From a virus (lineage: Duplodnaviria; Caudoviricetes): a DNA stretch of 64,000 bases. The stretch's first letter is position 1; every line of letters starts with the position of its first letter. A program made the translations under genes and the position numbers. The stretch spans positions 39,140-103,139 of IMG/VR virus record IMGVR_UViG_3300015610_000750; one strand, written 5' to 3'. The notes beneath the pieces were generated by a model. The model saw only the letters and a list, made by a program, of their open reading frames with translations, searched no databases and had not been told where the DNA came from. Shown piece by piece: positions 3,564 to 40,998 of this stretch.

Positions 3564-3722
3564 ATGGTCACTGACCTATTTACTTATGATATGGTTACTG
3601 ATCCGGGATTTTCCGACTCTAAATTAGAGATGCCTTATGAACTTTGGATTAAACTTAGAAATAATGAGAGAAAGAGATTAATTTCAAATATTTTAGACAA
3701 AATAAAAAAACCACTCGATTGA
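3564..3722 (+). CDS. 52-aa mini-protein: prohead-protease-derived segment plus RxxxIxxIL tag
   Basis: LFTYDMVTDPGFSDSK matches LFTYDIVADPGFASAK in the protease at 10460; ATG 3564 is in frame with track ORF 3531..3722. Confidence 0.7.
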   Translation: MVTDLFTYDMVTDPGFSDSKLEMPYELWIKLRNNERKRLISNILDKIKKPLD

Positions 3723-3736
3723 GTGGTTTTCTTTTT
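3704..3736. terminator. Bidirectional intrinsic terminator
   Basis: AAAAAACCACTC-GATT-GAGTGGTTTT between convergent genes. Confidence 0.8.
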
Positions 3737-4040
3737 ATTTCTTTTTGTATCTTTTACTTTCCATTGTTTCTGATGAGGCTACATTTCTAACAGCTGGTTC
3801 TTCTACACCAACCATTCTGCTTTTACCTCCTTCAGTTGCGTAACTTAAAGAGTAAACACCAAGTTCAACATCTTCATTTTGATTAGCAATGAATTCCATT
3901 TTATCTTCAGCTTCTTCTTGAGAATTAGCTCTTACAGTGATATCACAAGTGAATGTGTAATAGTTATTCACATCTGTATCTTCACCCCAATTTTGTTTAG
4001 GTTTTTGTTCATATAGTTCGTTGAACTTCTTAATCTTCAT
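3735..4040 (-). CDS. Hypothetical protein with putative capsid-targeting N-terminus
   Basis: MKIKKFNELYE start; TAATATATA on the minus strand at ~4066-4074. Confidence 0.6.
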   Translation of the reverse strand: MKIKKFNELYEQKPKQNWGEDTDVNNYYTFTCDITVRANSQEEAEDKMEFIANQNEDVELGVYSLSYATEGGKSRMVGVEEPAVRNVASSETMESKRYKKK

Positions 4041-4105
4041 AATAATGAATTATTTTTTAATAATGTATATATTATTTTTTATAACGTAATTTATATATAA
4101 AAAAC

Positions 4106-4133
4106 AAAAACCCACTTTTCAGTGGGTTTTTTT
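4106..4133. terminator. Intrinsic terminator after glutamine synthetase
   Basis: AAAAACCCACT-TTTC-AGTGGGTTTTTTT. Confidence 0.8.
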
Positions 4134-4134
4134 A

Positions 4135-5220: not shown

Positions 5221-5295
5221 ATGTATGGTTTTATTTTTGTTTATTATATTAATTTTTAAAACTTAGTTTCTTCCAAAACATACAATTTTTATAAA

Positions 5296-7766: not shown

Positions 7767-9458
7767 ATGGCTTCATATAACCCATCAAACACACAGGGAA
7801 ATTTTCAATATATTAATTCTGCAGTTGAGAACAAGGGATTGTTTTCGAGAATTTTAAGAAACTTATCATCTCATGGTATGAACTATGATGACATGATAGT
7901 TAGAAACCAAGTTGGTGTTGGTATAAATGAAGATCCATATGCTGCTAGAGGTAATAGCATGTATGATTTCTTCTCACAGAGAGCTGTTGCCTCTGTCCTT
8001 AATAAGAAGTCTATTCCATATTTAGATAAATCATACGGTGATAAAAGAAGAATTTTAAGAGAATATTCTATAAAGGATGAGATAAGAGATTTCGTTAGTA
8101 CTATATGTGATGAATCAATTATCTATAATGATAAGGATTTCTGTCAACCAAAGCCATTATCAAATGATTACCCACAAGAAGTTAGAGATAAGTATCAAGA
8201 GTATTTTGAGAAAGTTTATAATAAGTTTGGATTCTCCGATAACATTAGTGCTTGGAATATGATGAGAGATTTTTTAATTGATGGGTATGTTGCGGTTGAG
8301 ATAATCTATGATGATAAGAAAAAGAATATAATTGGATTTAATAGACTAAGACCCGAAACATTAGTTCCCGCATATGAGCCATCTATTGGTCATTTGTGGA
8401 TTCAATTTCCTGAAGATCCTCAATTGAGAAGGATATTTTTAGATTCTCAGATTATTTATATTTCATATTCAACGCAAAATGACTATTCTGAAACTTCATA
8501 TGTTGAAGGTTTGATTAAGCCTTATAACCAATTAAAGATAATTGAACAAACAAGAATAATGTTCAACATCATTAATGCTACTGTTTATCAAAAGTTTACT
8601 ATACCAATTAAGGGATTACCTAGACAAAGAGCTGAAGAGCAAATTGGTCAGTTAATACATGACTATTCTGAAGAAGTTGAGTGGGATGATTCACTTGGTA
8701 CTTTAACTATAAATGGAGCTAAACACTTACCTTACAATAAACAAGTTTGGTTTCCTGAGGGAGATGCTGGTACTCCAAATATGGAGTTAGTTTCACCAGA
8801 AGGACACAACTTAAATGAGAGTGATATACTAACTTGGTTCTATAATGCATTAAAAAGGGCATCTAAGATTCCTTTCCAGAGATTTGAAAAGGAAAATGGT
8901 GGTGGTAATATATTTACCGATGCTGCTGAGATGACAAGAGATGAGGTTAAGTTTTCTAACTTCATTGGGAGATTAAGAGCTAACTTTAAAGAATTAGTAG
9001 TTAAGCCAATAAAATTACAAATGATGATAGAGTTCCCTGAGTTAAAAGAAGATGAGATATTTATTAATCAAGTGGATATATCATTTAACTCCAATCAGTT
9101 ATTTGAAGAGTGGAAGAAGATCGGAAACATGGAGAAGAAAGCCGGTGTTCTATCAACGTTACTTGGTATTCAAAAGGCTGATGGTAATCCATACTTCCAC
9201 ATTGAGTACTTAATAGATCACGTATTTAAGTTATCTCCAGAGGAGAAAGAAGAAAATAAGAAATATTGGACTAAAGAGGGTGCTGGTGGTGGATCTGCTA
9301 CAGAAGGTGGTGGAGGCGCTGAAGGTGGCGGTGAAATGGGTGGTCCTGAAGGTGGTGGAGAAGCCGGAGGTCCTGAAATGGGTGGTCCTGAACCGGGTGG
9401 TGAAGCTGGTGGAGGTGCTGAAGGTGGCGGTGAAGCTGGTAGTGAATTTGAATTTTAA
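7767..9458 (+). CDS. Portal protein (T4 gp20-like) with Gly/Glu-rich C-terminal tail
   Basis: LIKPYNQLKIIE, RAEEQI, WFP, FYNALKRASKIP..RF, EMTRDEVKFSNFIGRLR; position upstream of protease and capsid genes. Confidence 0.9.
   Translation: MASYNPSNTQGNFQYINSAVENKGLFSRILRNLSSHGMNYDDMIVRNQVGVGINEDPYAARGNSMYDFFSQRAVASVLNKKSIPYLDKSYGDKRRILREYSIKDEIRDFVSTICDESIIYNDKDFCQPKPLSNDYPQEVRDKYQEYFEKVYNKFGFSDNISAWNMMRDFLIDGYVAVEIIYDDKKKNIIGFNRLRPETLVPAYEPSIGHLWIQFPEDPQLRRIFLDSQIIYISYSTQNDYSETSYVEGLIKPYNQLKIIEQTRIMFNIINATVYQKFTIPIKGLPRQRAEEQIGQLIHDYSEEVEWDDSLGTLTINGAKHLPYNKQVWFPEGDAGTPNMELVSPEGHNLNESDILTWFYNALKRASKIPFQRFEKENGGGNIFTDAAEMTRDEVKFSNFIGRLRANFKELVVKPIKLQMMIEFPELKEDEIFINQVDISFNSNQLFEEWKKIGNMEKKAGVLSTLLGIQKADGNPYFHIEYLIDHVFKLSPEEKEENKKYWTKEGAGGGSATEGGGGAEGGGEMGGPEGGGEAGGPEMGGPEPGGEAGGGAEGGGEAGSEFEF
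9278..9441 (+). repeat. Low-complexity GGGAE/GGPE repeats at the portal C-terminus
   Basis: Repeated GGTGGT/GAAGGTGG units, e.g. GCTGAAGGTGGCGGTGAA twice and GAAATGGGTGGTCCTGAA twice. Confidence 0.85.
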
Positions 9459-9459
9459 C

Positions 9460-9489
9460 AAAAAATCCTCTCAAATGAGAGGATTTTTT
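9460..9489. terminator. Bidirectional intrinsic terminator
   Basis: AAAAAATCCTCTCA-AA-TGAGAGGATTTTTT. Confidence 0.8.
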
Positions 9490-9910
9490 AATTATCTATA
9501 TAAAACACTACTTTATTTCTTTTTTCGAGTTTCATGACTTTTATCTCTAAGTCTATTTCATTTGAGATTATTTCTTTTAATATCTTACCATTAGGAGTTG
9601 TCATTGTTTCTATTGTGACTTTCAATCTTTCTACCGTATCATCCTTTATTATGAAGTTCATTGATACTATCTTAAATGCAAATTTGGTAATACTTATTTC
9701 CTCATTTTCGGGTTTACCGAGTAGTCCAAGAAACTCCCATGATCCTGATGATATCTCATCTATTGCGAATTCAACTTTCTTGCCCTCTAATAGAGTATTT
9801 AGTTTTACCTCTCTAAGGTATGACTTGAATTCTGGTAATGGTTCTAAAAGATGGTTAAATGATGAGAACACCAATTCGCTTTCTAAATTAACTATAAAAT
9901 CTTTTCTCAA
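9488..9910 (-). CDS. Degenerate prohead-protease-like protein carrying the REVKLNTLL tag
   Basis: IETMTTPNGKILKEII resembles the gp21 TPxGK helix; no catalytic His/Ser motifs visible. Confidence 0.5.
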   Translation of the reverse strand: MRKDFIVNLESELVFSSFNHLLEPLPEFKSYLREVKLNTLLEGKKVEFAIDEISSGSWEFLGLLGKPENEEISITKFAFKIVSMNFIIKDDTVERLKVTIETMTTPNGKILKEIISNEIDLEIKVMKLEKRNKVVFYIDN

Positions 9911-10302
9911 TTTTCAATTTCCTTTTTTGATATGTTGTCAACTCCGTACTTATCGACTAATGTTTTCTTCATCTTAGCCAATACTTTTCTATTTTGAATT
10001 GGGTAATCAACACCATGTGTCTTTTGTAGTGAATTTTTTCTTTTTGTTTCAGAACATTTTCTACAATAGTATTCACCCCATTTGTTATTGTACTTTACAT
10101 AGTTTTTGAATATGACTTCTTTTTCTTTATCACATCCTTCTCCGTCACATTTACATTTTATTTTAAAATGAGAACCTTTTGATAGTAATTCAATTGGTAT
10201 TACCAAATCATCACCTATTGAAACATCGTCATATCCCATATCCTCATAATATTGGAAATTGGATTCAGTTATTCTTATAGTTATCTCCCTGGTTAGTATC
10301 AT
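9907..10302 (-). CDS. Zinc-ribbon protein with KYGVDN-type repeats (homing-endonuclease-associated module, no nuclease domain)
   Basis: CDGEGC...YYCRKC; KTHGVDYP and KYGVDNIS repeats. Confidence 0.55.
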   Translation of the reverse strand: MILTREITIRITESNFQYYEDMGYDDVSIGDDLVIPIELLSKGSHFKIKCKCDGEGCDKEKEVIFKNYVKYNNKWGEYYCRKCSETKRKNSLQKTHGVDYPIQNRKVLAKMKKTLVDKYGVDNISKKEIEN

Positions 10303-10382
10303 GGATTTTTTACAATTTTACTTATTTATTAAAAAATACACGCTTCTTCCATGATTATTATAGGTATTTGGAAAATAAGTAC

Positions 10383-10432
10383 TATAAAAAATCCACCTCT
10401 GGAAAAAAAGGGTTCTGGTCGACAATATATAC
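10383..10432 (+). promoter_or_regulatory. TATAAAAAATCCACC box plus late promoter for the protease/scaffold gene
   Basis: Exact 15-mer shared with 12536 and 57839; ATATATAC 42 nt downstream. Confidence 0.7.
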
Positions 10433-10459
10433 TTTACCTTAAAAAATAAGATATTTTAA

Positions 10460-12529
10460 ATGAAACCAGTTTTAATCGTAGAAAACTCGACAAATTCCCT
10501 GGTAAAAGAGAGCACTTCTGGTAAGAAGGATTATATCTTGGGTGGTATATTCACTGAATTCGGTGTTAAAAATCGTAATGAAAGAATTTATACTGCTGAC
10601 AAGTTTCTTCCTTGTTTAGAAGAGTTAAACGATCGTATGAATACGTTCGGTACTGTTTACGGAGAGTTTGATCATCCTGATGTATTTGATACATCCCTAT
10701 CTAGATCATCACATATTATCACAAAAGCTGAATATATGAAAGAGTCTAATAGAGTTGAGGGTGAAATTAGATTATTGAGCACTTATTGGGGTAAAGAAGC
10801 AAGGGCATTAGTTGATGACGGATGTCCAATTTTCGTTTCCTCTAGAGCTGCAGGTATTACTGAGTCTGACGGTACCGTAACATTGAAGAAGTTATTTACT
10901 TATGATATTGTTGCTGACCCAGGATTTGCATCTGCAAAAATGAGTGTAAAAGTACTTAATGAATCATTCGGTTACTCAAATAACACAAACTTCAGGATAT
11001 ATGAAATGTCCGATGAGTCAAAAATTAATGAATTATTCAATATGAACAAAAATGACTTTGTCACTAAAAAACAATTGACTGATTACTCTCAGTATCTAAT
11101 TAAAGAATTAGCTACTACTAAGAAAGAAGTTAAGAATGCTTTAACTAAAGGTAATCTAAGTCCAAAGAAGTTAGAAACTCTTCTAGAATACTATGAAGAA
11201 TTACAATCAACTAACTCACAAATCGTTAAGTATCTTGACTACCTTGCTGAAAAGGTACAAGTTGTTGTTAACGAGAACTCATCATTAAAAAAGACAGCTG
11301 ATAAGCTTATCAAACATAATGATTATTTAGCAGAAAATTTAGAAAAAGCTATTAACTATACTGAATATCTTGCTGAAAATCTTGATAAGAATATTGACTA
11401 CTCTGAATATTTAGCAGAAAACTTAGATAAGAATATTTCTTACGCTGAGTATTTAGCTGAAAATCTTGATAGAAACATTTCATATTCAGAATATATCGCT
11501 GAGAATCTTGATAAAAACATTCAATACTCTGAATATTTAGCTGAGAATTTAGATAATAATATCGCTTATTCAGAATATATCGCTGAGAATTTAGATAAGA
11601 ACATTTCTTACTCTGAATATTTAGCTGAACATTTAGATAATTCTATCGCTTACTCTGAATATTTAGCAGAGCATGTTGAAGGAAATATCGCTTATTCAGA
11701 ATATATCGCTGAACATTTAGATGATAACATCGCTTATTCAGAATATATCGCTGAAAATCTTGACAAATCAATTTCTTACCAAGGAATGATCGTTGAGAAA
11801 TTAAATGGTGGTAAACTATTCGAAAGTAATGGTGAAATGTTACCATCTCTAGATGCTGCTGGTTTTGAATCAGTTGGTGAAGAAGAGGAAGAAGAAGAGT
11901 GTGGTCCATGTAATGATGAACTACCTCAAGAGGAAGAAGAAAACGCTGAAGTAAATGCTTCAGAAGAGGAAGAAGAGGAAGAAGTACACGAACAAATCAG
12001 TGGTAGCTCTGACACAGAATTATCACAATCTATTGATAAATTAATTGAAGAGGCTAAAAAACGTAAAGTCTCTGAATCAACTGACTTGAATTTCTTAAAG
12101 TTCTTAAACAAGTCACAAGTTGATAGCTTCTATGCATTAAATCCGGAAGAACAGGAAACTGTTAAACTTCACATAAACGAAAGAAGTTATTTCACACAAA
12201 AGGATGTATTAGCATTAATTAGTGAAGCGTTATCTGCAAAGAATGAATCTCTTGAAGAAAGAGTAATCAGATTGATGCCTGAAAACGTTAAGCCAATCTG
12301 GAATCAGTTAAATGAATCTTCTAAGAAATCTATCTTATCACAAGCTAGATTATATCCAGAAGATGTATTAAAAACTGAAAGTCAAATTGAGCATTTCTGG
12401 TTGACCAGAAATCTTAAGAAAAATGAATCTGTAACTAAGCAGTTAGTATCTCACGAAAGTTTAATTCAAGAAGATAGACTTTCTGATAAAGATGTACAAG
12501 CTATAATGGAAAGATTCAAAAACATTTAA
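10460..12529 (+). CDS. Prohead core protease (gp21-like) fused to scaffold/core protein
   Basis: KNRNERIY, GEFDHP, VSSRAAG, TYDIVADPGF; followed by coiled-coil repeats and an acidic linker. Confidence 0.9.
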   Translation: MKPVLIVENSTNSLVKESTSGKKDYILGGIFTEFGVKNRNERIYTADKFLPCLEELNDRMNTFGTVYGEFDHPDVFDTSLSRSSHIITKAEYMKESNRVEGEIRLLSTYWGKEARALVDDGCPIFVSSRAAGITESDGTVTLKKLFTYDIVADPGFASAKMSVKVLNESFGYSNNTNFRIYEMSDESKINELFNMNKNDFVTKKQLTDYSQYLIKELATTKKEVKNALTKGNLSPKKLETLLEYYEELQSTNSQIVKYLDYLAEKVQVVVNENSSLKKTADKLIKHNDYLAENLEKAINYTEYLAENLDKNIDYSEYLAENLDKNISYAEYLAENLDRNISYSEYIAENLDKNIQYSEYLAENLDNNIAYSEYIAENLDKNISYSEYLAEHLDNSIAYSEYLAEHVEGNIAYSEYIAEHLDDNIAYSEYIAENLDKSISYQGMIVEKLNGGKLFESNGEMLPSLDAAGFESVGEEEEEEECGPCNDELPQEEEENAEVNASEEEEEEEVHEQISGSSDTELSQSIDKLIEEAKKRKVSESTDLNFLKFLNKSQVDSFYALNPEEQETVKLHINERSYFTQKDVLALISEALSAKNESLEERVIRLMPENVKPIWNQLNESSKKSILSQARLYPEDVLKTESQIEHFWLTRNLKKNESVTKQLVSHESLIQEDRLSDKDVQAIMERFKNI
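11315..11776 (+). repeat. 11 tandem 42-bp (14-aa) repeats YSEY[LI]AE[NH]LDxNIx in the scaffold
   Basis: Counted directly in the translation and the DNA. Confidence 0.95.
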
Positions 12530-12535
12530 TCTGTA

Positions 12536-12585
12536 TATAAAAAATCCACCCTTGAAAAATATAGGTTTAGGACACATATATATAG
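12536..12585 (+). promoter_or_regulatory. TATAAAAAATCCACC box plus late promoter for the capsid gene
   Basis: Exact 15-mer; ATATATA 40-42 nt downstream. Confidence 0.7.
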
Positions 12586-12611
12586 ATATACAAAAAAGAA
12601 AAAATTAAATT

Positions 12612-14309
12612 ATGTCACACATTAGAATAGACAAACAAAAAGCAGTTAAGAAGTGGGCACCTGTTCTTGAGAACATGGGTATCACTGGCGACAGAGTTGA
12701 TTGGATGGCTGAGTACGCTGAGTTTCACCAAATCAATGAGAACGCTTATGTAAACGCTTCTAACGTAGCAGGTATGGGTTCAGTAGTTGCTGCTCAACCT
12801 TCTTCATTAGCTGGTAATACAATCACATCATTTGCAGGCCAAGTTGGTTCTGGTGATGTTGGTCAAAACCTTTTACCAGTAGCTATGAAAATCGCGGCTC
12901 AAACAATCGGTCTTGATTTAGTAGCAGTAAAACCATCTCCAGGTCCAAAAATCGATTTATTGTACATCGACTTCCAGTATGATGATACACAAATGGGTGA
13001 CCAAGATGAGAGACCACAAGTTTTCAAATTAAACGTTACTGAGTTATCAACAGTTCAAACAGCTTTAAGAGCTTTCATGACTGCTAACTCTATCAACGAG
13101 ACAACTGGTGGTATGAACGGAAGAATTTGGGTAAGACTTAACGCTAACTCAGCAGTACCTTCTTTCACTACAACTGACCAATCTGCTAACTCTAAATATG
13201 GTACAGCTGAATTCTTAGGATTCTCTCGTATCGATGGTTATCCAATGTTCAGAGCTTACAGACAGTTTAACACTGCTCACACAGCTGTTAGTTCAGCAAG
13301 TACTCTTTGGTCATTCGATCAAACTAGAAACACATTTAACCCAACTCAATCAATGGTTGCTCAAATCACTGCTATTGGTACTTACTCAGTAACAGGAGTT
13401 GACGTTCAATTAGTATCAGCACTTGAAGATCATATCCCTGGTTTCTCTGCAAACTGGAATGGTTCATCTTCTGCAGCTTTCGCTGGTAACTATCCAATGG
13501 ACAGAGCAATGGACGATAAGACTTACGCTGGTGTTATCGGTCCTAAGATTTCTTCTAAAACAATCGCAGTTGGTACTATCGAAGTAACTTCAGCATTGAG
13601 AAGAACTGAAATCGAAGATATTAAAGCTAACACAGGTATGGATATCGTTCAAAAGATGGAATCTATCCTTGTTAACGAATTATCTCAAACAATATCTAAG
13701 CAAATCGTTGCTAAGATATTCGAAATGGGTGATCTTAACAGAACATCTGCTCCTTTATTCGGAGGTACTCCAACTATCACTGGTCAAACTATATTTGACT
13801 TAGATACTGACTACGTTGGTACAGGTGGTCCTGGTGGAGAAACAACACACGCTATTCAACGTAAGTTAATTACTAAGATAGCACACGCTTCTAACTTCAT
13901 TGCAACAGAAGGTCGTGTTGGTCCAGCTCAGTACTTAATCACTAATGGAGGTCTTGCAGCAGCTTTACAAGATATCGCTGGTTATACAATTAACCCAGTT
14001 AAATCTAAGATGAACTCTCAAGGTCAATTATACCCAGTAGGTACAATTGGAGATATTTCAATATATGTTGACCCATATATGAAGTATAACGATAACAGAA
14101 TCGTTCTTGGTAGAAAGAACAATCCTGACCAACCAGGTATCATCTTCGTTCCATACTTAATGGCACAATCAATATCTATCATCTCTGAAGCTACATTCGC
14201 TCCGCGTATGTTACTAAGAAGTAGATATGCAGTTGCTGAAGTAGGTTGGTTCCCACAAAAGCAGTTCATGACTATCAAAGTTAAGGATACTAAACAATTC
14301 TTAAACTAA
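12612..14309 (+). CDS. Major capsid protein (T4 gp23-like)
   Basis: KKWAPVLE, AQTIGLDLVAVKP, IYVDPY, GIIFVPY, TFAPRMLLRSRYA; strongly biased codon usage; candidate INE cleavage site near residue 43. Confidence 0.93.
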   Translation: MSHIRIDKQKAVKKWAPVLENMGITGDRVDWMAEYAEFHQINENAYVNASNVAGMGSVVAAQPSSLAGNTITSFAGQVGSGDVGQNLLPVAMKIAAQTIGLDLVAVKPSPGPKIDLLYIDFQYDDTQMGDQDERPQVFKLNVTELSTVQTALRAFMTANSINETTGGMNGRIWVRLNANSAVPSFTTTDQSANSKYGTAEFLGFSRIDGYPMFRAYRQFNTAHTAVSSASTLWSFDQTRNTFNPTQSMVAQITAIGTYSVTGVDVQLVSALEDHIPGFSANWNGSSSAAFAGNYPMDRAMDDKTYAGVIGPKISSKTIAVGTIEVTSALRRTEIEDIKANTGMDIVQKMESILVNELSQTISKQIVAKIFEMGDLNRTSAPLFGGTPTITGQTIFDLDTDYVGTGGPGGETTHAIQRKLITKIAHASNFIATEGRVGPAQYLITNGGLAAALQDIAGYTINPVKSKMNSQGQLYPVGTIGDISIYVDPYMKYNDNRIVLGRKNNPDQPGIIFVPYLMAQSISIISEATFAPRMLLRSRYAVAEVGWFPQKQFMTIKVKDTKQFLN

Positions 14310-14391: not shown

Positions 14392-15081
14392 ATGGAAGCA
14401 AAGAAGTATATACTTGCTGTTGATTACCCAAGTAATGGTAATATTAAACTTTGGTACTATGATACTATTGGTGAAATATTAGATGAGATAAAATGCTGGA
14501 TATTAGATGATGATGAGGATCATGATTTGTTAAGTGTTAGTGATGAATATGTTGAAGATAGATTATCCGAAATGGAAATTACATTTTCTATCTATAAGTA
14601 TGGTGAGGAAGATCCTATTTCTGAATTATATTCAAATCCAGATGATAAATTTAGTGATTGGTTGGATGAGATGACATCTATTGTAGAAAATAATGTTATT
14701 AAATATGACCAGTTTATTACTGAAGGTAAAAAAGATAAATTCCCTAATATTAAAAAGGTTGTGATTGATGACTTTGTTGTCTATGTAGGTAGAGATTCAT
14801 TATCAAACGACCATTTAACATTTAATATGTCACATCCAGAAGATATATGGATGCATGCGAAAGGTGTTCCAGGTAGTCATGTTGTTATAAGAGTTAGAGA
14901 GAATTTACCTACGAAAGAGGTTATAAGAAAGGCAGCAGAGTTAGCTGTTAAGAATAGTAAGGCAAAAGATGATAAAACCACAGTAGTTTATTGTCAAAGA
15001 AAATTTGTAAAGAAAGAAAAAGATATGAAACCAGGACAAGTTAAGGTTGATTATGTCAATTCTGAGGAAATTACTATTTAA
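14392..15081 (+). CDS. NFACT-R (DUF814) RNA-binding domain protein with an acidic N-terminal domain
   Basis: VYVGRD..SNDHLT, DIWMHAKGVPGSHVVIR, AAELAVKNSK, PGQV. Confidence 0.85.
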   Translation: MEAKKYILAVDYPSNGNIKLWYYDTIGEILDEIKCWILDDDEDHDLLSVSDEYVEDRLSEMEITFSIYKYGEEDPISELYSNPDDKFSDWLDEMTSIVENNVIKYDQFITEGKKDKFPNIKKVVIDDFVVYVGRDSLSNDHLTFNMSHPEDIWMHAKGVPGSHVVIRVRENLPTKEVIRKAAELAVKNSKAKDDKTTVVYCQRKFVKKEKDMKPGQVKVDYVNSEEITI

Positions 15082-17521: not shown

Positions 17522-17528
17522 AGAAATT

Positions 17529-18835: not shown

Positions 18836-19816
18836 ATGAGTATAATTTCCTATTTTGGTGGTAAGTCAAGTAATGTGTTTATGAATTTTATAAACACTCG
18901 AATACCAAAAGATGGTAGTATTAAAACCTATGTTGAACCATTTAGTGGAGCAATGGGTACATTCATGGATGATGATTCATTGAAATTTGATACTGTCATT
19001 TATAATGATAAGAACAGACACCAAGTTAATCTATTTAAGTGTTGTTCAGAACCCGATAAGTTTATTCCCTATCTTGAAAATATAAAAAACGGTCTACTAA
19101 AGACATCTGAGACTGATCCACTTAAGAAGTGGGATTTCTATAAATCTATTTATAAAGATTATACTAAAAATGATTTTTTAGATAATAATAATTTCCAAAT
19201 TGGTGATTTTGAAAAGGCTGCAATTTATGCTTTCCTTATTACATCTTCACATAATTCTGTTTATCCGAGAGGGGCAGGATTTAATGGATATAAAAAGGAT
19301 AGAGATAAGTTAAAGTTGGAAGTACTTATTAATAAACTTAAAAAGAACACCTATACACAAAAGCTAAAATCTATTACAGAGTTCTCAAATATTGATTTTG
19401 AGGAACTAATTAAAAAGTATGACTCTGAAGATACATTTATGTATCTTGATCCTCCTTATGCTAGATTTAATGAAGATAAGGGAGATGATGATGCGAAGCG
19501 TTTATTTTGGTATGGTGCTGACTCTGATGGAGTTTTTGGTCCATCTTCACATAGAAGATTAATAGAATTATTGAAGAATACTAAGTGCAGATGGTCTCTA
19601 TCATACTACTATTTCCCATTATTGGATGAATTACTTCCTCGTGGTGAATATTACTGGGAACAGAAAGAAGTATTTAGAAGTTCTGCTCAAGGTGGTAATA
19701 ATCACCAATTAAAGGGTAAACAAGAAAAGGGTGTCGAACTTTTGATAATGAACTACGATCCATCTACTGGTAAGAAAACAAATTTAGCGCATGTGGATAG
19801 ACGAGTTGAAATCTAG
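18836..19816 (+). CDS. DNA adenine methyltransferase (Dam/D12 class)
   Basis: YFGGKS, YVEPFSGA, YND, YLDPPY. Confidence 0.88.
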   Translation: MSIISYFGGKSSNVFMNFINTRIPKDGSIKTYVEPFSGAMGTFMDDDSLKFDTVIYNDKNRHQVNLFKCCSEPDKFIPYLENIKNGLLKTSETDPLKKWDFYKSIYKDYTKNDFLDNNNFQIGDFEKAAIYAFLITSSHNSVYPRGAGFNGYKKDRDKLKLEVLINKLKKNTYTQKLKSITEFSNIDFEELIKKYDSEDTFMYLDPPYARFNEDKGDDDAKRLFWYGADSDGVFGPSSHRRLIELLKNTKCRWSLSYYYFPLLDELLPRGEYYWEQKEVFRSSAQGGNNHQLKGKQEKGVELLIMNYDPSTGKKTNLAHVDRRVEI

Positions 19817-20513
19817 TGATTTAGTCAATGTAATGCCTTACATGACTTTGAATAAGAATCTTAATAACTTTATTAAGATTCAATTTAGTATGGCTTACCA
19901 TGAACCGGATGAACTATTGAATAGAGATAAATTGATACATCTCGTTTCAAATGAGTTTAATATGGCAATATCGAATAAAATAATGAAAGAGTTTAATTCA
20001 GTAAATGTCTTTGATTATATCGATAAAAGTGGTATTGGTGATATTCAAGTTTTACCATTAAATGATGTTATTAAAATAGCTGAGGAGTTTTACCATAAGA
20101 CAGATTCTTATAAGTATCTAATCACCAATGGTAATTTGGGTAGCTTTCTACAAGATTCTTCAAGATTTACCATTACACCAGTCACTAATAGTATATCAAA
20201 TTGGTCATCACTTACATATAATATTGGTAAGTTTGGAGATTTGGATGTTTGGATTGATCCAGTTCTTGAATGGAAAGATACAACAGGCTATCTTTTCGAT
20301 GGAATCAACATTAACATTGGTGATTTCACAGCAACGATCAGTAATCAAGCAACATTTACACCAAGATTGATATTTGACTTAGAGATTGATTTTAGGATTA
20401 TTAATCCTAAATTATTTTTTGTAGTAACTGATAAGACATCAAAGTCATATTCAAGATACAAATCTCTACTAAGAGATATTAAAATTAATGATGTTTTAGA
20501 TGAAGAAAATTAG
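19791..20513 (+). CDS. Degenerate capsid-protein paralog (C-terminal half) with RDIKINDVL tag
   Basis: YLITNGNLGSFLQD, IGKFGDLDVWIDP and ATFTPRL align with capsid YLITNGGLAAALQD, VGTIGDISIYVDP and ATFAPRM. Confidence 0.8.
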   Translation: MWIDELKSSDLVNVMPYMTLNKNLNNFIKIQFSMAYHEPDELLNRDKLIHLVSNEFNMAISNKIMKEFNSVNVFDYIDKSGIGDIQVLPLNDVIKIAEEFYHKTDSYKYLITNGNLGSFLQDSSRFTITPVTNSISNWSSLTYNIGKFGDLDVWIDPVLEWKDTTGYLFDGININIGDFTATISNQATFTPRLIFDLEIDFRIINPKLFFVVTDKTSKSYSRYKSLLRDIKINDVLDEEN

Positions 20514-28427: not shown

Positions 28428-28703
28428 TGGACTTATAACAACACCTATATGTGACTCAAAGTAACAACCATTGGCTATCTCTTTCCCAGTTGAAATAACT
28501 GGCGCACCAGGATGCCAAGGTACGGTTTCTATCTTCTTTCTAACAACCTTATATCCATGTAGATCCAACTCAAATGCTATCCTCTCACACTCAATATATG
28601 CTGATTTGTTATCACCGAAGTGTTTTGATGATGTCATTATATCTTTCAGAACTGACCCACCATTTATCTCTAAATCAAGTATAATTGGTTTAACTACTAC
28701 CTT
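28416..28703 (-). pseudogene. Internal gene fragment (VKPIILDLE...KIETVPWHP...YFESHI)
   Basis: Open frame extends upstream of the track ATG without a start codon and ends at a junction. Confidence 0.5.
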
Positions 28704-28746
28704 TTATAGTTACTTCCTCTTTTATAAATTTTGAAAAATCTTTCAT
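28690..28746 (-). pseudogene. 18-codon N-terminal stub MKDFSKFIKEEVTIKG
   Basis: CTS-like start immediately terminated. Confidence 0.45.
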
Positions 28747-30699: not shown

Positions 30700-30912
30700 A
30701 TGAAAGAAATTAATATGAGTATTAAGAGTGTTAAAGTAGAGGCTACCACAAGACATGTTAGAGCTCAGTGGACCGCACAAATGGCTAGTGATATAGCATC
30801 ATTGACATCAATTGATTTCGAGGCGGAGCTTAGAGCAATACTTAGACAGCAGAATAGAACAGAGAAGTTATCTAAAATTTTAAATTCAGTTAAACATTAT
30901 AATAGTTTTTAG
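30700..30912 (+). CDS. 70-aa capsid-protein fragment with RTEKLSKIL tag
   Basis: SIKSVKVEATTRHVRAQWTAQMASDI...DFEAELRAIL resembles the gp23 EAKSRxLKAxxxxELAQDL...DAxAEL..IL segment. Confidence 0.7.
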   Translation: MKEINMSIKSVKVEATTRHVRAQWTAQMASDIASLTSIDFEAELRAILRQQNRTEKLSKILNSVKHYNSF

Positions 30913-32342: not shown

Positions 32343-32879
32343 ATGATAGGTTTGGATCAAGCTACATCTTCTTATGTGATTATAACGTCTGATAAAATAG
32401 ACGATATTGAGACTGTTTTATACGGCAGAGACTATTCTATTATCCCAATCAAAGAATTTTATAACGGTGATTATAAGAACTCAATCATATCATATGGTAG
32501 AGTTGATAATGATAATTTAAGAAGAGATGTCCTTTTCTTACTTGATAAGTTTAACTTCAACTCAGCAATCATAAAATATCATGGAGAAAGTGTTATTAAG
32601 AGAATTAATAGAGATGGTTCTGAAGTTCCTCTTGATTTAGTTATGTATAATACTGATTTCAACAAACCTTCTTATTTATACAATGGATATTCATTCTCTT
32701 TTAATGAGAAAAAGAGATACTACTTTCCTTCTAAGAAAGAAGATATTAAAAAGGGTATGATTGTTGAGTTTTTTACAAATAATAAATGGGTTGAAAAACA
32801 AGTTTCCAACCCAGAATTAGAATATGAGAAGATGTATAAGCTACTTATTAAGTATAATAAGTTAAGAATTGCTATATAA
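32343..32879 (+). CDS. Hypothetical late protein
   Basis: TAATATATAC immediately upstream. Confidence 0.6.
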   Translation: MIGLDQATSSYVIITSDKIDDIETVLYGRDYSIIPIKEFYNGDYKNSIISYGRVDNDNLRRDVLFLLDKFNFNSAIIKYHGESVIKRINRDGSEVPLDLVMYNTDFNKPSYLYNGYSFSFNEKKRYYFPSKKEDIKKGMIVEFFTNNKWVEKQVSNPELEYEKMYKLLIKYNKLRIAI

Positions 32880-33663
32880 TTTCAAAATTAACAATATTCT
32901 TATTGAATGAGAATTTAACAGGCTTCATGTAGAAGTCTTTCCTATTATTGAATACCATCAGACCTCCTTTATCTTTACCATTTTCAGTTCTTCCAACAAT
33001 TACCTTATTTGGTTTTATTAGTGGTGACTCTATTACAGCCATTCCTTGAATACTACCAATAATAGATGGGTCTTTTGGATTTGTTGGAGTTGTTACAAAA
33101 CTAGCTACTTTGAAATATTTTGATGATCCTTTACCAACTATAACAAATGTTGCTGGTCCAATCCTTCCATATGTTGCAATATAACCACTAGCTGACATTA
33201 TTCTAGTGATGATCTTTCTCGCATTTGATTGCAGATTATCATAATCACTATTATTTGGATCATTTGTTATTGTAACATTTGATATTTGTGGTGGTAGCGA
33301 GCTGTGATTTTTCAGAGAATCTAAAAAATTAATAACACTATTCCAAATACCCTGATATGATGAGAATTGTTTCTTATTAAATGATGACAGTGATGTTGTG
33401 AAAACTCTTGGAGCTATTATTCCTACACTACTCCCACCAAATCCAATCATTGATGATGGTTCTTCAATATTGACTCTTTTTGATAATTCCTCTTCTTTGT
33501 TATCGAGAATGGCATCAAGAGTTATTTCTCTATTTTTGATTTCTCTCATTAATTCTTCATCAGAGGAATCAATCACATCTATATAATGAAGAGAAGATGA
33601 ATCACTTATTGAATCATCTTCATTATAGTTGCATATTAATTCTAAATCTTCCCTACTTATCAT
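32872..33663 (-). CDS. Degenerate capsid-protein paralog with N-terminal REITLDAIL tag
   Basis: ARKIITRIMSASGYIATYGRIGPATFVIV aligns with capsid QRKLITKIAHASNFIATEGRVGPAQYLIT; NKVIVGR vs NRIVLGR. Confidence 0.75.
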   Translation of the reverse strand: MISREDLELICNYNEDDSISDSSSLHYIDVIDSSDEELMREIKNREITLDAILDNKEEELSKRVNIEEPSSMIGFGGSSVGIIAPRVFTTSLSSFNKKQFSSYQGIWNSVINFLDSLKNHSSLPPQISNVTITNDPNNSDYDNLQSNARKIITRIMSASGYIATYGRIGPATFVIVGKGSSKYFKVASFVTTPTNPKDPSIIGSIQGMAVIESPLIKPNKVIVGRTENGKDKGGLMVFNNRKDFYMKPVKFSFNKNIVNFEII

Positions 33664-34411: not shown

Positions 34412-34496
34412 TAAATAATATAGTTTTTTATTTATAAAAAAAATCATTTGAAAGTTGTGGAATTTGGCAAAATGATTATATTTGTATATATACAAT

Positions 34497-34901
34497 ATGA
34501 AGAAAATAGGTAGAATTGAAAAAGTAAGTTTCCCCGATTTGAGTATCGATTCAATTGATGCTAAGGTAGATACTGGTGCTTATGGCACCGCTCTTCATGT
34601 TAATGGTATACGAACAAGGAATGGGAAACTTTCCTTTTGGGTAGATGATCCATCTTGTAGATTATACTTTGATAAGTATAAGGTTATTAACGTAAAAAGC
34701 TCTTTTGGTAAAACACAAAAGAGATATTCAATAATGACAAGAATTAAGGTTGGTGATTCCACATATAAGATATATGTATCTCTAACTAATAGAAAGGATA
34801 TGAAATATCCCGTTTTGATTGGTAGAAGGTTTCTATATAAGTTCCACTATATAGTAGATGTAAGAAAAAAACATATTAATGATAGAGCTAAAAAAGTGTA
34901 A
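34497..34901 (+). CDS. RimK-associated retropepsin-like (ATP-dependent Zn protease family) protein
   Basis: IGRIE, AKVDTGAY, VKSSFG...R, LTNRKDMKYPVLIGRRFL. Confidence 0.85.
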   Translation: MKKIGRIEKVSFPDLSIDSIDAKVDTGAYGTALHVNGIRTRNGKLSFWVDDPSCRLYFDKYKVINVKSSFGKTQKRYSIMTRIKVGDSTYKIYVSLTNRKDMKYPVLIGRRFLYKFHYIVDVRKKHINDRAKKV

Positions 34902-35403
34902 TTTCATCACTGGTGACCCAAGGTCGGTTTCGTTCGGGGTTCATAGTGTTTTATCCTTCTTAGAATTAGAAGGTCGAAATATAATGCTTTTATGTAAACC
35001 CAAGACAATTGATACTTCAAGTAGCTTAAAGTACATCTGGAATGTTAAGAAGGAGTTCACTGATTTCTTTTCATTTAAGAAACTACTCAAAGATAATTCT
35101 GCATTATTTAGAATTGATTTACTTGTTGTAGACCTATGGAGTCTGAGAAATATACCTATTGAGTATAAGCAGGCTCTTGATGAAACAGGTATACAATATA
35201 TTATACTATCGAAACAGTATCACTACACATCATCTGAGGACATTGGCGACTTTCATATTCAAAATGAATCTGATGGTACTTTTAACTCAAAATATACAAT
35301 TACAGATAAGGTTAGTGGTTGGTCTTCATCCCTTGAAGATTTGAAGAAGTCTTATATCAGAGACAAGAGAATAGATGGCATTATAGGAGACGAAGAAATC
35401 TAA
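34879..35403 (+). CDS. Degenerate RecA/helicase-like protein with RDKRIDGII tag
   Basis: FITGD (decayed P-loop), RIDLLVVDLW Walker-B-like strand. Confidence 0.45.
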   Translation: MIELKKCNFITGDPRSVSFGVHSVLSFLELEGRNIMLLCKPKTIDTSSSLKYIWNVKKEFTDFFSFKKLLKDNSALFRIDLLVVDLWSLRNIPIEYKQALDETGIQYIILSKQYHYTSSEDIGDFHIQNESDGTFNSKYTITDKVSGWSSSLEDLKKSYIRDKRIDGIIGDEEI

Positions 35404-35467: not shown

Positions 35468-36622
35468 ATGAGGATTAGACGAAAATTTTTACAACTTACC
35501 AAATGGACATATCCATATGGTACAGAACATACTCTCGAAAGCTATCTACCAAAAGGTTTTAGAAAAGACGAGAATGACAATTACTATTTCCAAATTGGAG
35601 AGAATCCAACAACCATGTTTGCTTGTCACCTTGACACATCTTGTTCCAAACAGGAGAAGGTAACTCATATGCAAGACAGTCAATATATTGGTACTAATGG
35701 TAAGACAATTCTTGGTGCTGATGATAAGGCTGGAATGGTTATTCTTCTTTATATGATAGAGAAGAAAATACCAGGTCTATATTACTTCTTCATTGGTGAA
35801 GAGGTTGGATGTATTGGTTCGAATGCGTTATCAATGCAATGGGAAGAATTACAAATGTTCAATGATATTAAAAAGGTAATTTCCTTTGATAGGAGAGGTA
35901 CTAAGTCTATTATAACTCACCAATTATATGGTCGTTGTTGTTCTGATGAATTTGCTCAAGAATTGGCAAATAGATTGAATTCAACTGATAATGGTTTAGA
36001 AATGGAGCTCGATGATACTGGTATGATGACAGACTCCGCTCAATTTGTTGACCTTGTGCCAGAGTGTACGAATATTTCGGTTGGTTATTACAATGAACAT
36101 ACTGTTAATGAAGTTCAAGATATAGAATTCTTACAAAGATTATGTAAGGCAGTTGTTAGTATTGACTGGGAAACCTTACCAGTTGTGAGAGATCCGGATG
36201 TAGATGATGAATACGATGATTGGTATGGTTGGGATAAGTCTCCATCTAAATATAACTATGGTAATGTTGCTGAAGAGGATGAGCCTGAGTTCCAAGATGG
36301 TTACTATACATATGTTATGTGGGGTAAAGAAACACGTAGAATGTTAGTATCTATGGATAGAATTAGAGAAGAGAGGACTCTTATTTATAATTGGTTGTTC
36401 TCAACGGGAATAATACACGATTATAAGGGTATAACTTGGAATGGTCACTCATTATATACACAAAATTCTCAAGATAGACTTGAGTTTATTGGTAATCGAG
36501 TTGATATTATGGAATATATTCCAGCATTAGCAACTATACCTAAAAATTTATTGTCTGATAAGCCTAGTAGACCAAAGGCTATGTCTAGATTCCCTGATTG
36601 GGAAGATGAAATTTATAATTAA
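35468..36622 (+). CDS. M28-family zinc peptidase (paralog of 15120..16478)
   Basis: CHLDT, LGADDKAG, GEEVG, ISFDRRG, TDS, NISVGYYNEHT. Confidence 0.85.
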   Translation: MRIRRKFLQLTKWTYPYGTEHTLESYLPKGFRKDENDNYYFQIGENPTTMFACHLDTSCSKQEKVTHMQDSQYIGTNGKTILGADDKAGMVILLYMIEKKIPGLYYFFIGEEVGCIGSNALSMQWEELQMFNDIKKVISFDRRGTKSIITHQLYGRCCSDEFAQELANRLNSTDNGLEMELDDTGMMTDSAQFVDLVPECTNISVGYYNEHTVNEVQDIEFLQRLCKAVVSIDWETLPVVRDPDVDDEYDDWYGWDKSPSKYNYGNVAEEDEPEFQDGYYTYVMWGKETRRMLVSMDRIREERTLIYNWLFSTGIIHDYKGITWNGHSLYTQNSQDRLEFIGNRVDIMEYIPALATIPKNLLSDKPSRPKAMSRFPDWEDEIYN

Positions 36623-38303: not shown

Positions 38304-38359
38304 AGTATATTTATTTTTTGATATTATAATATATATTAAAATAAATTCCGTATATTTGT

Positions 38360-39145
38360 ATGATGAAAGAAAAGGAACTACTTTGGAATATACTCACATC
38401 TAAAGACCCATCACAAGAGCTTATTAGACTTGATAATGATGGTGTTCTTAGTATTCTTTTGCCTGAATTGACCGACTTGAAGGGAGTTGATGTTGTTGAT
38501 GGTAGAGGTCACAAGGATAATTACCTACACACTTTACAAGTAATAAAACAAACAGCTGAGGCATCAACTAATCCTTGGTTGAGACTTGTTGCTATTCTAC
38601 ACGATGCTGGTAAGGCAAAAACTAAAAAATACTTTGCTGGTAAGGGATGGACTTTCCAAAACCACGAGCTGGTTAGTGCTCACATGGTTAAGGATGTATT
38701 TAATAGATTTGGATTAGATAAGACCAAAATGAAATATGTCTATAAACTTATAGAGTACCACGGTATCGCTAAAGAATTAACAAAGGAAGATGTTAGTGAT
38801 TCTGCTATTCGTAGATTCTCAACAGAGTTGGGTGATTGGATCGATGATTTGTTGTTATTCTGTAAGTGTGATATGACGACAAGATTTGAGGATAAGAGAG
38901 CTAGATTTCAAAAAGATTTAGATGATCTTAAGAGTAGAGTCTTAGAAGTAAGAGAAAAAGATGAAGCTGCTAAGTGGAGATGTCCAATCGATGGTAATTT
39001 CATCATGAAAGAACTTAATATTGTTCCTGGTAAAAAATTAGGATTAATAAAATCTGAAATAGAAAGAGCTATCAAAGCTGGGGAAGTCGAAGATGATTTT
39101 GATAGTGCGTATGAATATTTAATGTCTATCAAGGATAAATACTAA
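38360..39145 (+). CDS. HD-domain protein matching the C-terminal half of CCA-adding enzymes (no NTase head)
   Basis: LPEL..LKGV, HKDNYLHTLQV, LHDAGK, FQNHE, DSAIRR, PIDGNFIMKELNIVPGKKLG. Confidence 0.8.
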   Translation: MMKEKELLWNILTSKDPSQELIRLDNDGVLSILLPELTDLKGVDVVDGRGHKDNYLHTLQVIKQTAEASTNPWLRLVAILHDAGKAKTKKYFAGKGWTFQNHELVSAHMVKDVFNRFGLDKTKMKYVYKLIEYHGIAKELTKEDVSDSAIRRFSTELGDWIDDLLLFCKCDMTTRFEDKRARFQKDLDDLKSRVLEVREKDEAAKWRCPIDGNFIMKELNIVPGKKLGLIKSEIERAIKAGEVEDDFDSAYEYLMSIKDKY

Positions 39146-39333
39146 TGAATATTTTATTAGAGCTTAATAATAAAATAGATGAACTAAAGAAGTCCGGATT
39201 GGAAGACTCTCAAGTTAAAATTGAGGGTCTTGCCTTTTTAAAAAATACTTTGAGAAGCGCATCATTCGATGATAGAAAGGACTTTTGGAGGTACATAGAC
39301 AGAGATAAAAAATTAAACGAAATTTTAAAATGA
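39145..39333 (+). CDS. Small protein with C-terminal RDKKLNEIL tag
   Basis: ORF track; shared motif. Confidence 0.6.
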   Translation: MNILLELNNKIDELKKSGLEDSQVKIEGLAFLKNTLRSASFDDRKDFWRYIDRDKKLNEILK

Positions 39334-39665
39334 AAAAATTCACAGGTGTTAGATTAAACAAAATTCTTGTTGATAGAAACAAACTATCTGATGAGAATGT
39401 TGCGGACATTGAAAGATTACATCGTATTAAACATTATATTTTTGAATATATGGAGAATACAGATGATTCAGAAAAATTGAAAAAATTGGCTAACTTAGTT
39501 GAGTTGGTTGAATATAAGTTGCAATCTACTTGGAAGTTTAATGTAGATAAAAACTATCATAGATGGTTTGAAATACCAAAGTGTACTTGCCCGAAGATGG
39601 ACAATGCTGAATATATTGGTACAAACTATAAAGTGTTTAATAGAAATTGTAAGATACATGCCTGA
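39330..39665 (+). CDS. Conserved phage protein with a zinc-binding C-terminus
   Basis: LQxxWxF...HRWF...CTCPKMDN...CKIH. Confidence 0.65.
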   Translation: MKKFTGVRLNKILVDRNKLSDENVADIERLHRIKHYIFEYMENTDDSEKLKKLANLVELVEYKLQSTWKFNVDKNYHRWFEIPKCTCPKMDNAEYIGTNYKVFNRNCKIHA

Positions 39666-40443
39666 ACTAACAGAAGTTAAAATAATGTCAGATTTCATAA
39701 ATAGAAATTCTGAGAATAAAACCTACTCTAAATTATATCATGTTGAAAAGGGAAATAGCCCTATCGACTCAAAGCTAATCGAAAACTTTAATGTAAGTGC
39801 CAATTCTTTTGGTAAAGAATTACAATTGAGGGTACATCATGATCTTACAGATCTTAAGTTTTCTGTATTTATGGGTATGAGTGGTAATTGGAAATTTGTA
39901 CCAACTGAGGATTGGAATAATACCAAATTTGTCAGAATGAGACTTGATACCAATGATGGATACTCATTGTTGTTACACGGTGGTTATATGGGACCTAAGT
40001 ATAAATTGGGTGGATTTTCTGGTGTAGATAGAGGTCCGGATCCAACAAAAGAATTCGATAAATTCAAATCTAATGTCATTAAAAACCTATCAACTAAGGC
40101 GTTTGATAAGCCTATTTGTGAGGCTTTACTTGACCAAAAGTACTTTAATGGTATTGGTAACTATCTTAGGAGTACAATATTATATTATGCTGATGTGAAT
40201 CCTTTTGAGAAGGCATCTACATCTATAAAGAATAATCCAAAGATATTAGATTTATGTAGAGATATCCCAATGAAGTCTTATGAGTTAAATGGTGGTCAAT
40301 TAAAAGATTGGAAGAATCCATTTGATAATGACTCTAAGGAATTTGAGGAGTGGGTTTTTTATCAAAAAGGTAAATCAGTTAAAGATAAAACTGGAAGAAC
40401 TTTTTGGTACGATGATAAGTGGGAAAGTAAGAGTCCCTATTAA
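39658..40443 (+). CDS. Fpg/Nei-family DNA glycosylase, NEIL1-like
   Basis: True start MPELTEV (catalytic P2/E3), GKEL, GMSG, H2TH LLDQKYFNGIGNYLR, zincless finger GRTFWY. Confidence 0.9.
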   Translation: MPELTEVKIMSDFINRNSENKTYSKLYHVEKGNSPIDSKLIENFNVSANSFGKELQLRVHHDLTDLKFSVFMGMSGNWKFVPTEDWNNTKFVRMRLDTNDGYSLLLHGGYMGPKYKLGGFSGVDRGPDPTKEFDKFKSNVIKNLSTKAFDKPICEALLDQKYFNGIGNYLRSTILYYADVNPFEKASTSIKNNPKILDLCRDIPMKSYELNGGQLKDWKNPFDNDSKEFEEWVFYQKGKSVKDKTGRTFWYDDKWESKSPY

Positions 40444-40473
40444 ACAAAATGTAATGCCCTTAATATAAAGGGC

Positions 40474-40998
40474 ATGTTCAGTAAGATTTTTAATATTATA
40501 CAAGGAGATAGATCAAGTGGTAAATCAGTATTACTTTGGAGTTTATCGAAGATATTAAAGTCTGAGGGATATAAGATTTGTTTTTTAGGATGTTCTGAGG
40601 AATATACAAATGATGGAACAGATGTGTTTTTGAAACACTATGACTTTGTAAGAGTGATACCTAATAATGTCTCTTACTCTAATAATCAAACATTTGAATT
40701 ACTCAAAGAGTTACTGGAGAGAGATAAGTATGATTATTTACTTATAGATGATGTAGATATATTTGACAAGTCTTATTGGAATAAGATAAAGAATATAAAT
40801 ATAAAGAAGATATTTACTTGTGGTGAGTTACCTTTAATTGGTGGTTTACCATACAACCTTATGAAGGTCACACACAGATATGATGATTCGGACTTATCTA
40901 ATAAAGTATTTATTGAATACAATAAGGATTTTTATGATTTGGAATCATTTATTTCCACTTTACATAGGGATATGAAAATAAAAAATATACTAAGATGA
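40474..40998 (+). CDS. Small P-loop ATPase-like protein with RDMKIKNIL tag
   Basis: GDRSSGKS, YDYLLIDD. Confidence 0.6.
   Translation: MFSKIFNIIQGDRSSGKSVLLWSLSKILKSEGYKICFLGCSEEYTNDGTDVFLKHYDFVRVIPNNVSYSNNQTFELLKELLERDKYDYLLIDDVDIFDKSYWNKIKNINIKKIFTCGELPLIGGLPYNLMKVTHRYDDSDLSNKVFIEYNKDFYDLESFISTLHRDMKIKNILR

Follow-up and report, generated by a model that had tools for sequence, protein, structure and literature searches.

The locus and its motif-bearing genes

The window analysed here is a stretch of 64,000 nucleotides, bases 39140-103139 of a viral contig of 103 kb (IMG/VR record IMGVR_UViG_3300015610_000750; G+C 31%), and contains a short peptide motif of the type R-D-x-K-I-N-x-I-L, referred to below as the tag, which recurs on otherwise unrelated proteins. 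The phage of which it is a piece is huge, of Mahaphage type, and has a head module resembling that of T4; the window is syntenic with the region 205-255 kb of LR756502.1 ("uncultured phage", 642 kb), neighbouring proteins being 65-96% identical. LR745206.1, LR756501.1 and LR756504.1 are remoter relatives. LR756502.1 and its relatives are the largest of the genomes reported by Al-Shayeb et al. (2020; PMC7162821), belonging to the Mahaphage clade with Bacteroidetes as the predicted hosts.

A preliminary description of this DNA listed eleven tag peptides, all of which are present in the window (Table 1), the coordinates used there being starts of open reading frames (ORFs) and not motif positions. 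Its statement that the motif usually lies at the C-terminus applies to eight ORFs (3531, 17957, 19791, 20500, 20744, 34879, 39145 and 40474), in which 1-9 residues separate it from the stop codon. It does not apply to ORF 9488, where the motif is internal, to ORF 32872, where it is close to the N-terminus, or to ORF 30700, where RTEKLSKIL is probably the end of a capsid spine helix and not a tag.

Table 1. Motif-bearing ORFs and other genes discussed in the text, in window coordinates unless marked as contig coordinates (aa, amino acids).
Feature	Position (strand)	Motif position (strand)	Remarks
RKRLISNIL; ORF 3531, 63 aa	3531..3722 (+)	3669-3695 (+)	Marginal match, 8 residues before stop
REVKLNTLL; ORF 9488, 140 aa, degenerate prohead-protease (gp21-fold) paralogue	9488..9910 (-)	9788-9814 (-)	Internal, residues 33-41
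RDNIIEKLL; ORF 17957, 95 aa	17957..18244 (+)	18206-18232 (+)	C-terminal tag, 3 residues before stop
RDIKINDVL; ORF 19791, 240 aa, mini HK97-fold capsid paralogue	19791..20513 (+)	20472-20498 (+)	C-terminal tag
RDYRIKKII; ORF 20500, 85 aa	20500..20757 (+)	20713-20739 (+)	C-terminal tag
RDLNLVDVL; ORF 20744, 127 aa	20744..21127 (+)	21071-21097 (+)	Tag 9 residues before stop
RTEKLSKIL; ORF 30700, 70 aa, capsid spine-helix fragment	30700..30912 (+)	30856-30882 (+)	Helix end, 9 residues before stop
REITLDAIL; ORF 32872, 263 aa, capsid-like paralogue	32872..33663 (-)	33505-33531 (-)	Residues 45-53, spine-helix position
RDKRIDGII; ORF 34879, 174 aa	34879..35403 (+)	35359-35385 (+)	C-terminal tag
RDKKLNEIL; ORF 39145, 62 aa	39145..39333 (+)	39301-39327 (+)	C-terminal tag, 1 residue before stop
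RDMKIKNIL; ORF 40474, 174 aa, P-loop-like	40474..40998 (+)	40966-40992 (+)	C-terminal tag
Portal	7767-9458 (+)		Pfam; untagged
Protease-scaffold fusion	10460-12529 (+)		Pfam; untagged
Major capsid protein, gp23-type	12612-14309 (+)		Pfam; untagged
Stand-alone NFACT-R protein	14392-15081		
M28-like peptidase paralogue	15120-16478		
M28-like peptidase paralogue	35468-36622		
RimB-like "Zn_protease"	34482-34901		
NADAR protein	18237-18713		
ClpS-like ORF	contig 28446-28727 (-)		Just upstream of the window

About seven of these ORFs had been regarded as degenerate pieces of core phage proteins, and five of the assignments stand, three to capsid (19791, 30700 and 32872) and two to prohead protease (9488 and 3531). 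The canonical C-terminal tag is found on one of these five head-protein paralogues, ORF 19791. ORF 30700, which comes after a gene with a late promoter (see below), matches Pfam Gp23 (6e-10) and the PHROG major head protein (1.4e-7); ORF 32872 has matches to Gp23 (4e-4) and, by blastp, to the capsid protein of the phage itself (1.2e-8). The body of ORF 3531 copies 24 residues of the phage prohead protease (blastp to protease residues 138-161, 8.8e-6), and its short relatives in loci L092 and L050 terminate in R.K.KI..I[FW]. The structure of ORF 9488 predicted by AlphaFold 2 (AF2; predicted local distance difference test, pLDDT, 88) has T4 gp21 as its top structural match (5jbl_A; Z 8.0, root-mean-square deviation 2.7 over 105 residues; next Z 4.5). 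Most orthologues of ORF 9488 (loci L015-L094) finish in ..P-K-x-A-A then stop, an ssrA-like C-terminus that the window copy does not have.

ORF 19791 cannot be called a degenerate piece. On its AF2 model (pLDDT 86) it is a complete, minimal and conserved HK97-fold protein and not a decaying fragment, with 220 capsid or encapsulin entries of the PDB matching it at E<=1e-3 and a ratio of nonsynonymous to synonymous divergence (dN/dS, omega) of 0.16-0.39 in close ortholog pairs. The gene lies downstream of a Dam methyltransferase gene and has no late motif upstream.

The two remaining assignments, to P-loop or helicase-like proteins, are less secure: ORF 34879 has no family match in Pfam or PHROG and its P-loop character is unsupported, and ORF 40474 has a Walker-A-like GDRSSGKS and weak AAA matches below the cut-off. 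BLASTP does not support paralogy of these two ORFs, both of 174 residues and both tagged. A thymidylate synthase gene (ThyA) follows immediately downstream of ORF 40474, and a G+C-rich hairpin (GCCCTTAATATAAAGGGC) lies at window 40440-40473, directly upstream of its start. The absence of the tag from the functional capsid protein, also noted in the preliminary description, is borne out; for the helicase it has to be amended, the 555-aa helicase-like ORF containing one internal copy (48132-48158).

Scale and form of the tag

The tag extends far beyond the window. A search of the 103-kb contig with R[DE]..[ILV]..[ILV][ILV] gives 7 motifs at most 10 residues from a C-terminus, where 0.09 are expected from 2000 shuffles (maximum 2); none lies near the ends of reversed sequences and none at N-termini. 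The complete relative LR756502.1 (989 ORFs) was scanned over its whole genome with a strict and a broader tag pattern. The strict pattern occurs 118 times, with 85 C-terminal carriers (the strict set), and the broader one gives 163 ORFs tagged at the C-terminus (16.5%), against 3.5 in shuffles. The enrichment of terminal motifs over shuffled controls, on which the preliminary description had made its case depend, is thus found in both the contig and LR756502.1.

The logo reads [ILV]-R-[DE]-x-K-[IL]-[NDSE]-x-[IL]-L, after which come 0-3 residues; K, which the search pattern did not specify, is present in 55 of the 85 strict carriers, and N may stand for D. A second form, K-L-x-x-[LI]-G-I, stands directly before the stop codon, and 40 of the 163 broader-set tags end in [ILM]-G-[ILV]. 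A Shine-Dalgarno origin was considered for the G of the L-G-I variant and set aside, as no such sequence precedes the head genes and the spacing, judged by reading, is too short. The tag, which lies 0-12 residues from the C-terminal end, probably forms a short amphipathic helix. The R stands exactly 10 residues from the end in 82 of the 163 tags, which might suggest recognition of the free carboxylate or a ribosomal mechanism. This distance varies from 9 to 20 residues among orthologues, so that a fixed distance is preferred and not required. Nor is the tag followed by a gp21-type cleavage site (L/I-x-E): no consistent Glu is present, and LLE occurs in the ORF 9488 family alone.

Carriers are small (median 126 aa in the strict set), and 88 of the 163 tags fall within small-ORF arrays at 0-100 kb and 600-642 kb of LR756502.1. 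With the tag removed, the 85 strict carriers are all singletons with no mutual blastp matches at 1e-4, which at the level of blastp speaks against a single paralogous family with a conserved end. The ten largest carriers have no Pfam family, and Pfam, PHROGs, a PDB sequence search and the ESM Atlas were uninformative for tag carriers and for the tagged neighbour of clpC described below. Among the relatives, LR745206.1 is equally tag-dense (17 tagged out of 102 ORFs over the initial 50 kb), and many of the 80 IMG/VR loci with a capsid protein of at least 70% identity contain the tag; it is degenerate in LR756504.1, and none was found in the 100 kb of LR756501.1 sampled. A literature search found no published description of the tag.

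Selection on the tag

Comparison of orthologues, drawn also from the 80 IMG/VR loci, indicates that selection maintains the tag at the protein level. Its codons vary freely, R being AGA, AGG or CGN and L being TTA, CTA, CTT or TTG, and orthologues whose bodies have diverged down to 22-35% identity still retain it, as expected of the modular tag on unrelated proteins that had been proposed. In the window, ORF 17957 has an orthologue in LR756502.1 with 47% identity and RDNIIENIL; the orthologue of ORF 34879 (49%) retains RDKKIDGII and that of ORF 40474 (37%) RELKINNVLK. ORF 20500, with 14 orthologues in IMG/VR loci, has RDFKIKKVL in LR756502.1, and the LR756502.1 ORF syntenic to 39145 terminates in RDKKINQLLK. 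R[DEN].N[LI]..[LI][LF] is retained in 24 orthologues of ORF 20744, with 9-20 residues from the R to the C-terminus. In families that are 22-40% identical, the R, I and L of the tag are among the few invariant columns: R228, I232 and L236 are three of eight such columns in the ORF 19791 family (17 orthologues, 22-34% identical), and the clpC-neighbour family has three such columns, among them the R. Pooled over ortholog pairs, tag and body are equal in synonymous divergence, while nonsynonymous divergence is lower in the tag (0.23-0.32) than in the body (0.38-0.49).

The tagged genes themselves are not decaying, since omega is 0.07-0.39 in close ortholog pairs (0.07-0.17 for ORF 20744), far from the value near 1 that neutral decay would give. 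The proposal of the preliminary description is that tagged ORFs are fragments of core proteins, mimicking capsid, protease and helicase so as to divert defence sensors or rival phages. Five motif ORFs in the window are indeed capsid or protease paralogues. However, the motif is internal in three of those five, the fold of ORF 19791 is complete and its gene under purifying selection, and most carriers have no detectable relatives. In LR756502.1, small ORFs matching a protein at least 1.8 times longer number 2 of 157 tagged against 17 of 638 untagged (p=0.4), and tagged ORFs have fewer paralogues than untagged ones. As core-protein fragments are not enriched among the carriers, the reading as a decoy library is unsupported and is regarded as very improbable.

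A pattern acting at the level of nucleic acid or translation, such as a downstream initiation signal or a nascent-peptide effect at termination, would account for tight coupling to the downstream gene (57 of 85 tagged genes against 324 of 712, p=2e-4), for the mildly raised share of codons ending in A at the last positions, and for the final Ile of the G-I variant, which is usually ATA then TGA and gives an overlapping ATG. Against this, synonymous codons vary where amino acids are fixed, 15 of the 85 tagged genes have no co-directional downstream gene, and the tag-stop distance is variable among orthologues as described above; hardly any weight is given to such an origin.

It is also conceivable that the tag is a self-association or capping helix, through which small proteins oligomerise or have their fold stabilised with no common reader. 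In the predicted structure of ORF 9488 the motif lies within helix 28-40, inside the compact fold, and R33 and L41 are two of only three columns invariant in 46 orthologues; in ORF 19791 the tag is the distal half of an additional C-terminal helix of 21 residues (218-238). Such a role would not demand one nine-position pattern on some 160 otherwise dissimilar proteins, nor the conservation of R, D, K and N, which are needless for a generic hydrophobic helix, and the pattern is absent from compositionally similar relatives. This makes a capping helix distinctly unlikely as the general explanation.

The tag is better understood, on the pattern of its conservation, as a portable docking label that would bring the cohort of carriers to one common reader, a reading to which a probability of about 0.85 is given. 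The tag is conserved while the bodies diverge, as a common docking hub would predict, and the idea of a modular tag plus hub in the preliminary description is in this respect partly supported.

Promoter class and a second, N-terminal label

Intergenic regions are enriched in two motif families, ATATATA and TAnnTTTG. The T4-type head module spans window 7767..14309 (+), and ATATATA stands 29-36 nucleotides (nt) upstream of its portal, protease-scaffold and capsid genes and of an M28 peptidase gene (window 7738, 10425, 12576 and 15087), as well as at other sites; from this placement it is taken as the late promoter. TAnnTTTG, which resembles the -7 element of Bacteroidota, stands before non-late operons and is mostly the nearest upstream promoter in operons of tagged genes. 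The late motif is rarer before tagged genes (6 of 163) than before small genes without the tag (110 of 638; p=1.4e-6), and from such promoter motifs the tagged genes appear to be of early type. Carriers are nearly all small, mutually unrelated, fast-evolving and outside late operons.

A different label is present at N-termini. A T4-like peptide of the MKHLKKFNE type (MK[HY]L[KR][KT][FY]NE...) begins at least 62 ORFs of LR756502.1 and about 20 in the contig, and 34% of those in LR756502.1 have a late motif directly upstream. That no tagged protein has this capsid-targeting N-terminus, a point already made in the preliminary description, is confirmed, with 0 proteins carrying both labels against 10.2 expected (p=2e-5). 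The two labels are mutually exclusive and mark two different protein sets.

This arrangement weighs against reading the tag as a head-loading signal, which would act from the C-terminus in the manner of the T4 capsid targeting sequence or of encapsulin cargo peptides, binding the scaffold, capsid or protease core and so taking the carriers into the prohead for injection. Encapsulin cargo likewise consists of unrelated proteins with a C-terminal peptide of some 10 residues, one variant of the tag terminates in L-G-I, and the motif occurs on head-protein paralogues (C-terminal in 19791; internal in 9488 and 32872). The protease-scaffold fusion has a conserved tag-like DESKINELF right behind its protease domain. 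The late promoter, on the other hand, precedes every head gene and is strongly under-represented before tagged genes, and the separate set of 62 proteins with the T4-like N-terminal label, of which 34% have a late motif, never carries the C-terminal tag, so head loading is considered unlikely.

Candidate readers of the tag

Genomes with the tag contain genes for ClpP (2-3 copies), for ClpS and for a ClpC-like unfoldase of about 700 residues. The unfoldase has no Clp_N domain; its features are a pair of AAA+ modules, a UVR M-domain and a ClpP-docking GVGF loop. The ClpC-like GVGF protein and 2-3 ClpP genes are found in LR756502.1, LR745206.1 and IMG/VR relatives. Of the Clp components, the 103-kb contig contains only a ClpS-like ORF, read by eye, whose LR756502.1 orthologue is confirmed by Pfam ClpS. 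The N-terminus of the ClpC-like protein (LR756502.1 440128-442667; L101-L135) consists of a conserved short motif and then a poly-Asp/Glu tract (..IKAALEDDDDD..). In the treatment of jumbo phages by Iyer et al. (2021; PMC7824862), ClpP and ClpS are the only components noted.

In 18 of 74 loci the clpC-like gene is preceded by a conserved tagged ORF (107-141 aa), at a distance of 7-45 nt or, in two loci, of 129 nt, and as a separate case a tagged ORF of 124 aa occurs in the ClpP2 operon. Near clpC, 27 of 493 small ORFs are tagged on contigs with a short ClpC, against 0 of 385 where ClpC has at least 800 residues. In LR756501.1, where the 100 kb sampled contain no tags, ClpP and ClpS are missing and the ATPase is ClpB-like, with Clp_N and without an IGF-type loop. 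These genomic associations make the phage's own ClpC-like/ClpP machine the favoured, if tentative, candidate for the reader, possible rather than probable. The tag might then act as a degradation signal by which the Clp machine clears early proteins or, alternatively, as a tether by which variable small proteins would be held on the Clp protease.

Several observations weigh against a Clp reader. Co-occurrence of the tag and Clp comes from a handful of related lineages and is phylogenetically confounded, so that it is suggestive at most. LR756504.1 has ClpP and ClpS and only a degenerate tag, its ATPase being without a GxGF loop by regular expression. The conservation of R, D, K and N suggests a helix that binds in a groove, as opposed to a degron engaged by the pore. 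The clpC and clpP genes are without late promoters, so that a simple model of a late protease clearing early proteins is unsupported, and the assignment of the carriers to an early class is inferred from promoter motifs alone. Finally, the tag frame of the transfer-messenger RNA (tmRNA) candidate described next scores -3.75 bits on a position-specific scoring matrix (PSSM) of the tag, a value reached by about 20% of random 34-mers; tagged termini have a median of 18.9 bits.

This tmRNA candidate is a divergent tmRNA-like gene at window ~17141-17525 (+), with 5' GGGGATG... and a matching 3' acceptor strand. Its tag frame of about 30 residues is conserved, terminates in ..NEVGTREDLVAALQNNMLLVEEPATV then stop, and is recovered in more than 40 related loci; ARAGORN and Rfam detect no tmRNA in the window. 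A link to the C-terminal tag was considered, as R-E-D-L-V-A-A-L of the frame is tag-like by eye, and was rejected, the likeness not being significant on the PSSM.

Docking onto a cytoplasmic hub other than Clp, of the host (Bacteroidota) or of the phage, such as a chaperone, a scaffold of the replication or takeover factory or a host machine to which many early proteins would need access, is a doubtful alternative. The general evidence for a docking motif applies to it equally, the conserved polar positions fit a specific groove, and the connection of the tag with Clp is one of genomic association. No candidate hub has emerged, however, and no PDZ, Lon or ClpX zinc-finger domains were found in the four huge-phage genomes searched.

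A more elaborate form of the Clp reading, regarded as quite unlikely, is that the cohort constitutes a phage library of degrader adaptors. Each body would bind a different host protein, of defence or housekeeping function, and the tag would tether it to ClpC-like/ClpP for destruction of the target.

Other genes around the head module

Genes of the protein-quality-control type cluster around the head module, namely those for the NFACT-R, M28-like, RimB-like, NADAR and ClpS-like proteins of Table 1. Between the portal and protease genes, a 131-aa ORF at window 9907-10302 (-) has Cys knuckles and repeated KYGV-type motifs and may be of homing-endonuclease-like type. In the protease-scaffold fusion, the prohead protease is S77-like, and the scaffold contains an acidic tract and a 14-residue repeat (YSEYLAENLDKNIx) present in about 12 copies.

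Significance and comparison with known systems

To our knowledge, terminal address peptides of phages have been known only at small scale, for example on T4 internal proteins. Here, one ten-residue label is carried by roughly one-sixth of the proteome in some of the largest known phages, parallel to a second, mutually exclusive N-terminal label. Together the two labels allow hundreds of relative-less proteins to be sorted from sequence into two functional classes, and the tag defines a concrete and testable receptor hunt. If a Clp reader were confirmed, this would be the first phage with proteome-wide tagging, for timed clearance of early proteins or for targeted destruction of host proteins.

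Among known systems, the capsid targeting sequence of T4 is an N-terminal peptide of the MKTYQEFIAE type on internal proteins that is cut by gp21. It shares with the tag the principle of a short terminal peptide on unrelated, fast-evolving accessory proteins, and at least 62 proteins in the lineage of the window also begin with a T4-like label. The tag differs in being C-terminal and without a consistent L-x-E cleavage site after it, in residing on genes without late promoters and in never occurring together with the N-terminal label.

Encapsulin cargo-loading peptides, which bind the inner face of an HK97-fold shell, are likewise C-terminal, about 10 residues long and placed on unrelated proteins. 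HK97-fold proteins are at hand here, in the capsid protein and the mini HK97 paralogue, and the L-G-I variant adds to the likeness. The encapsulin cargo consensus is of the G-S-L / L-x-I-G-S-L-K type, whereas the tag consensus R-D-x-K-I-N-x-I-L is probably helical and not of the G-S-L type. The mini HK97 protein is itself tagged, moreover, and the carriers are not late genes.

C-terminal signals of Clp systems (ssrA and the ClpX-binding peptide of SspB) are also short terminal peptides, by which one AAA+ protease is linked to many adaptors or clients. ClpC-like, ClpP and ClpS proteins are all encoded in the lineage here, and the clpC-like gene has a tagged gene as its immediate upstream neighbour. 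The tag is nonetheless unlike, in sequence, ssrA, the SspB peptide and the phage's own tmRNA tag, and strict terminal placement is not required. The tag works in the manner of known terminal address peptides but differs from each of them in the defining features that could be compared.

A further parallel lies in the hub-docking boxes of eukaryotic viruses, such as the BC-box of HIV Vif and the PRANC/F-box of poxvirus ankyrin proteins, in which a short conserved motif is joined to a hypervariable body in large, fast-evolving gene sets. Those boxes recruit ubiquitin ligases, a system not present here, and the analogy is functional only. If the carriers were degrader adaptors, they would be the bacterial-virus counterpart of the F-box and BC-box strategies of these viruses.

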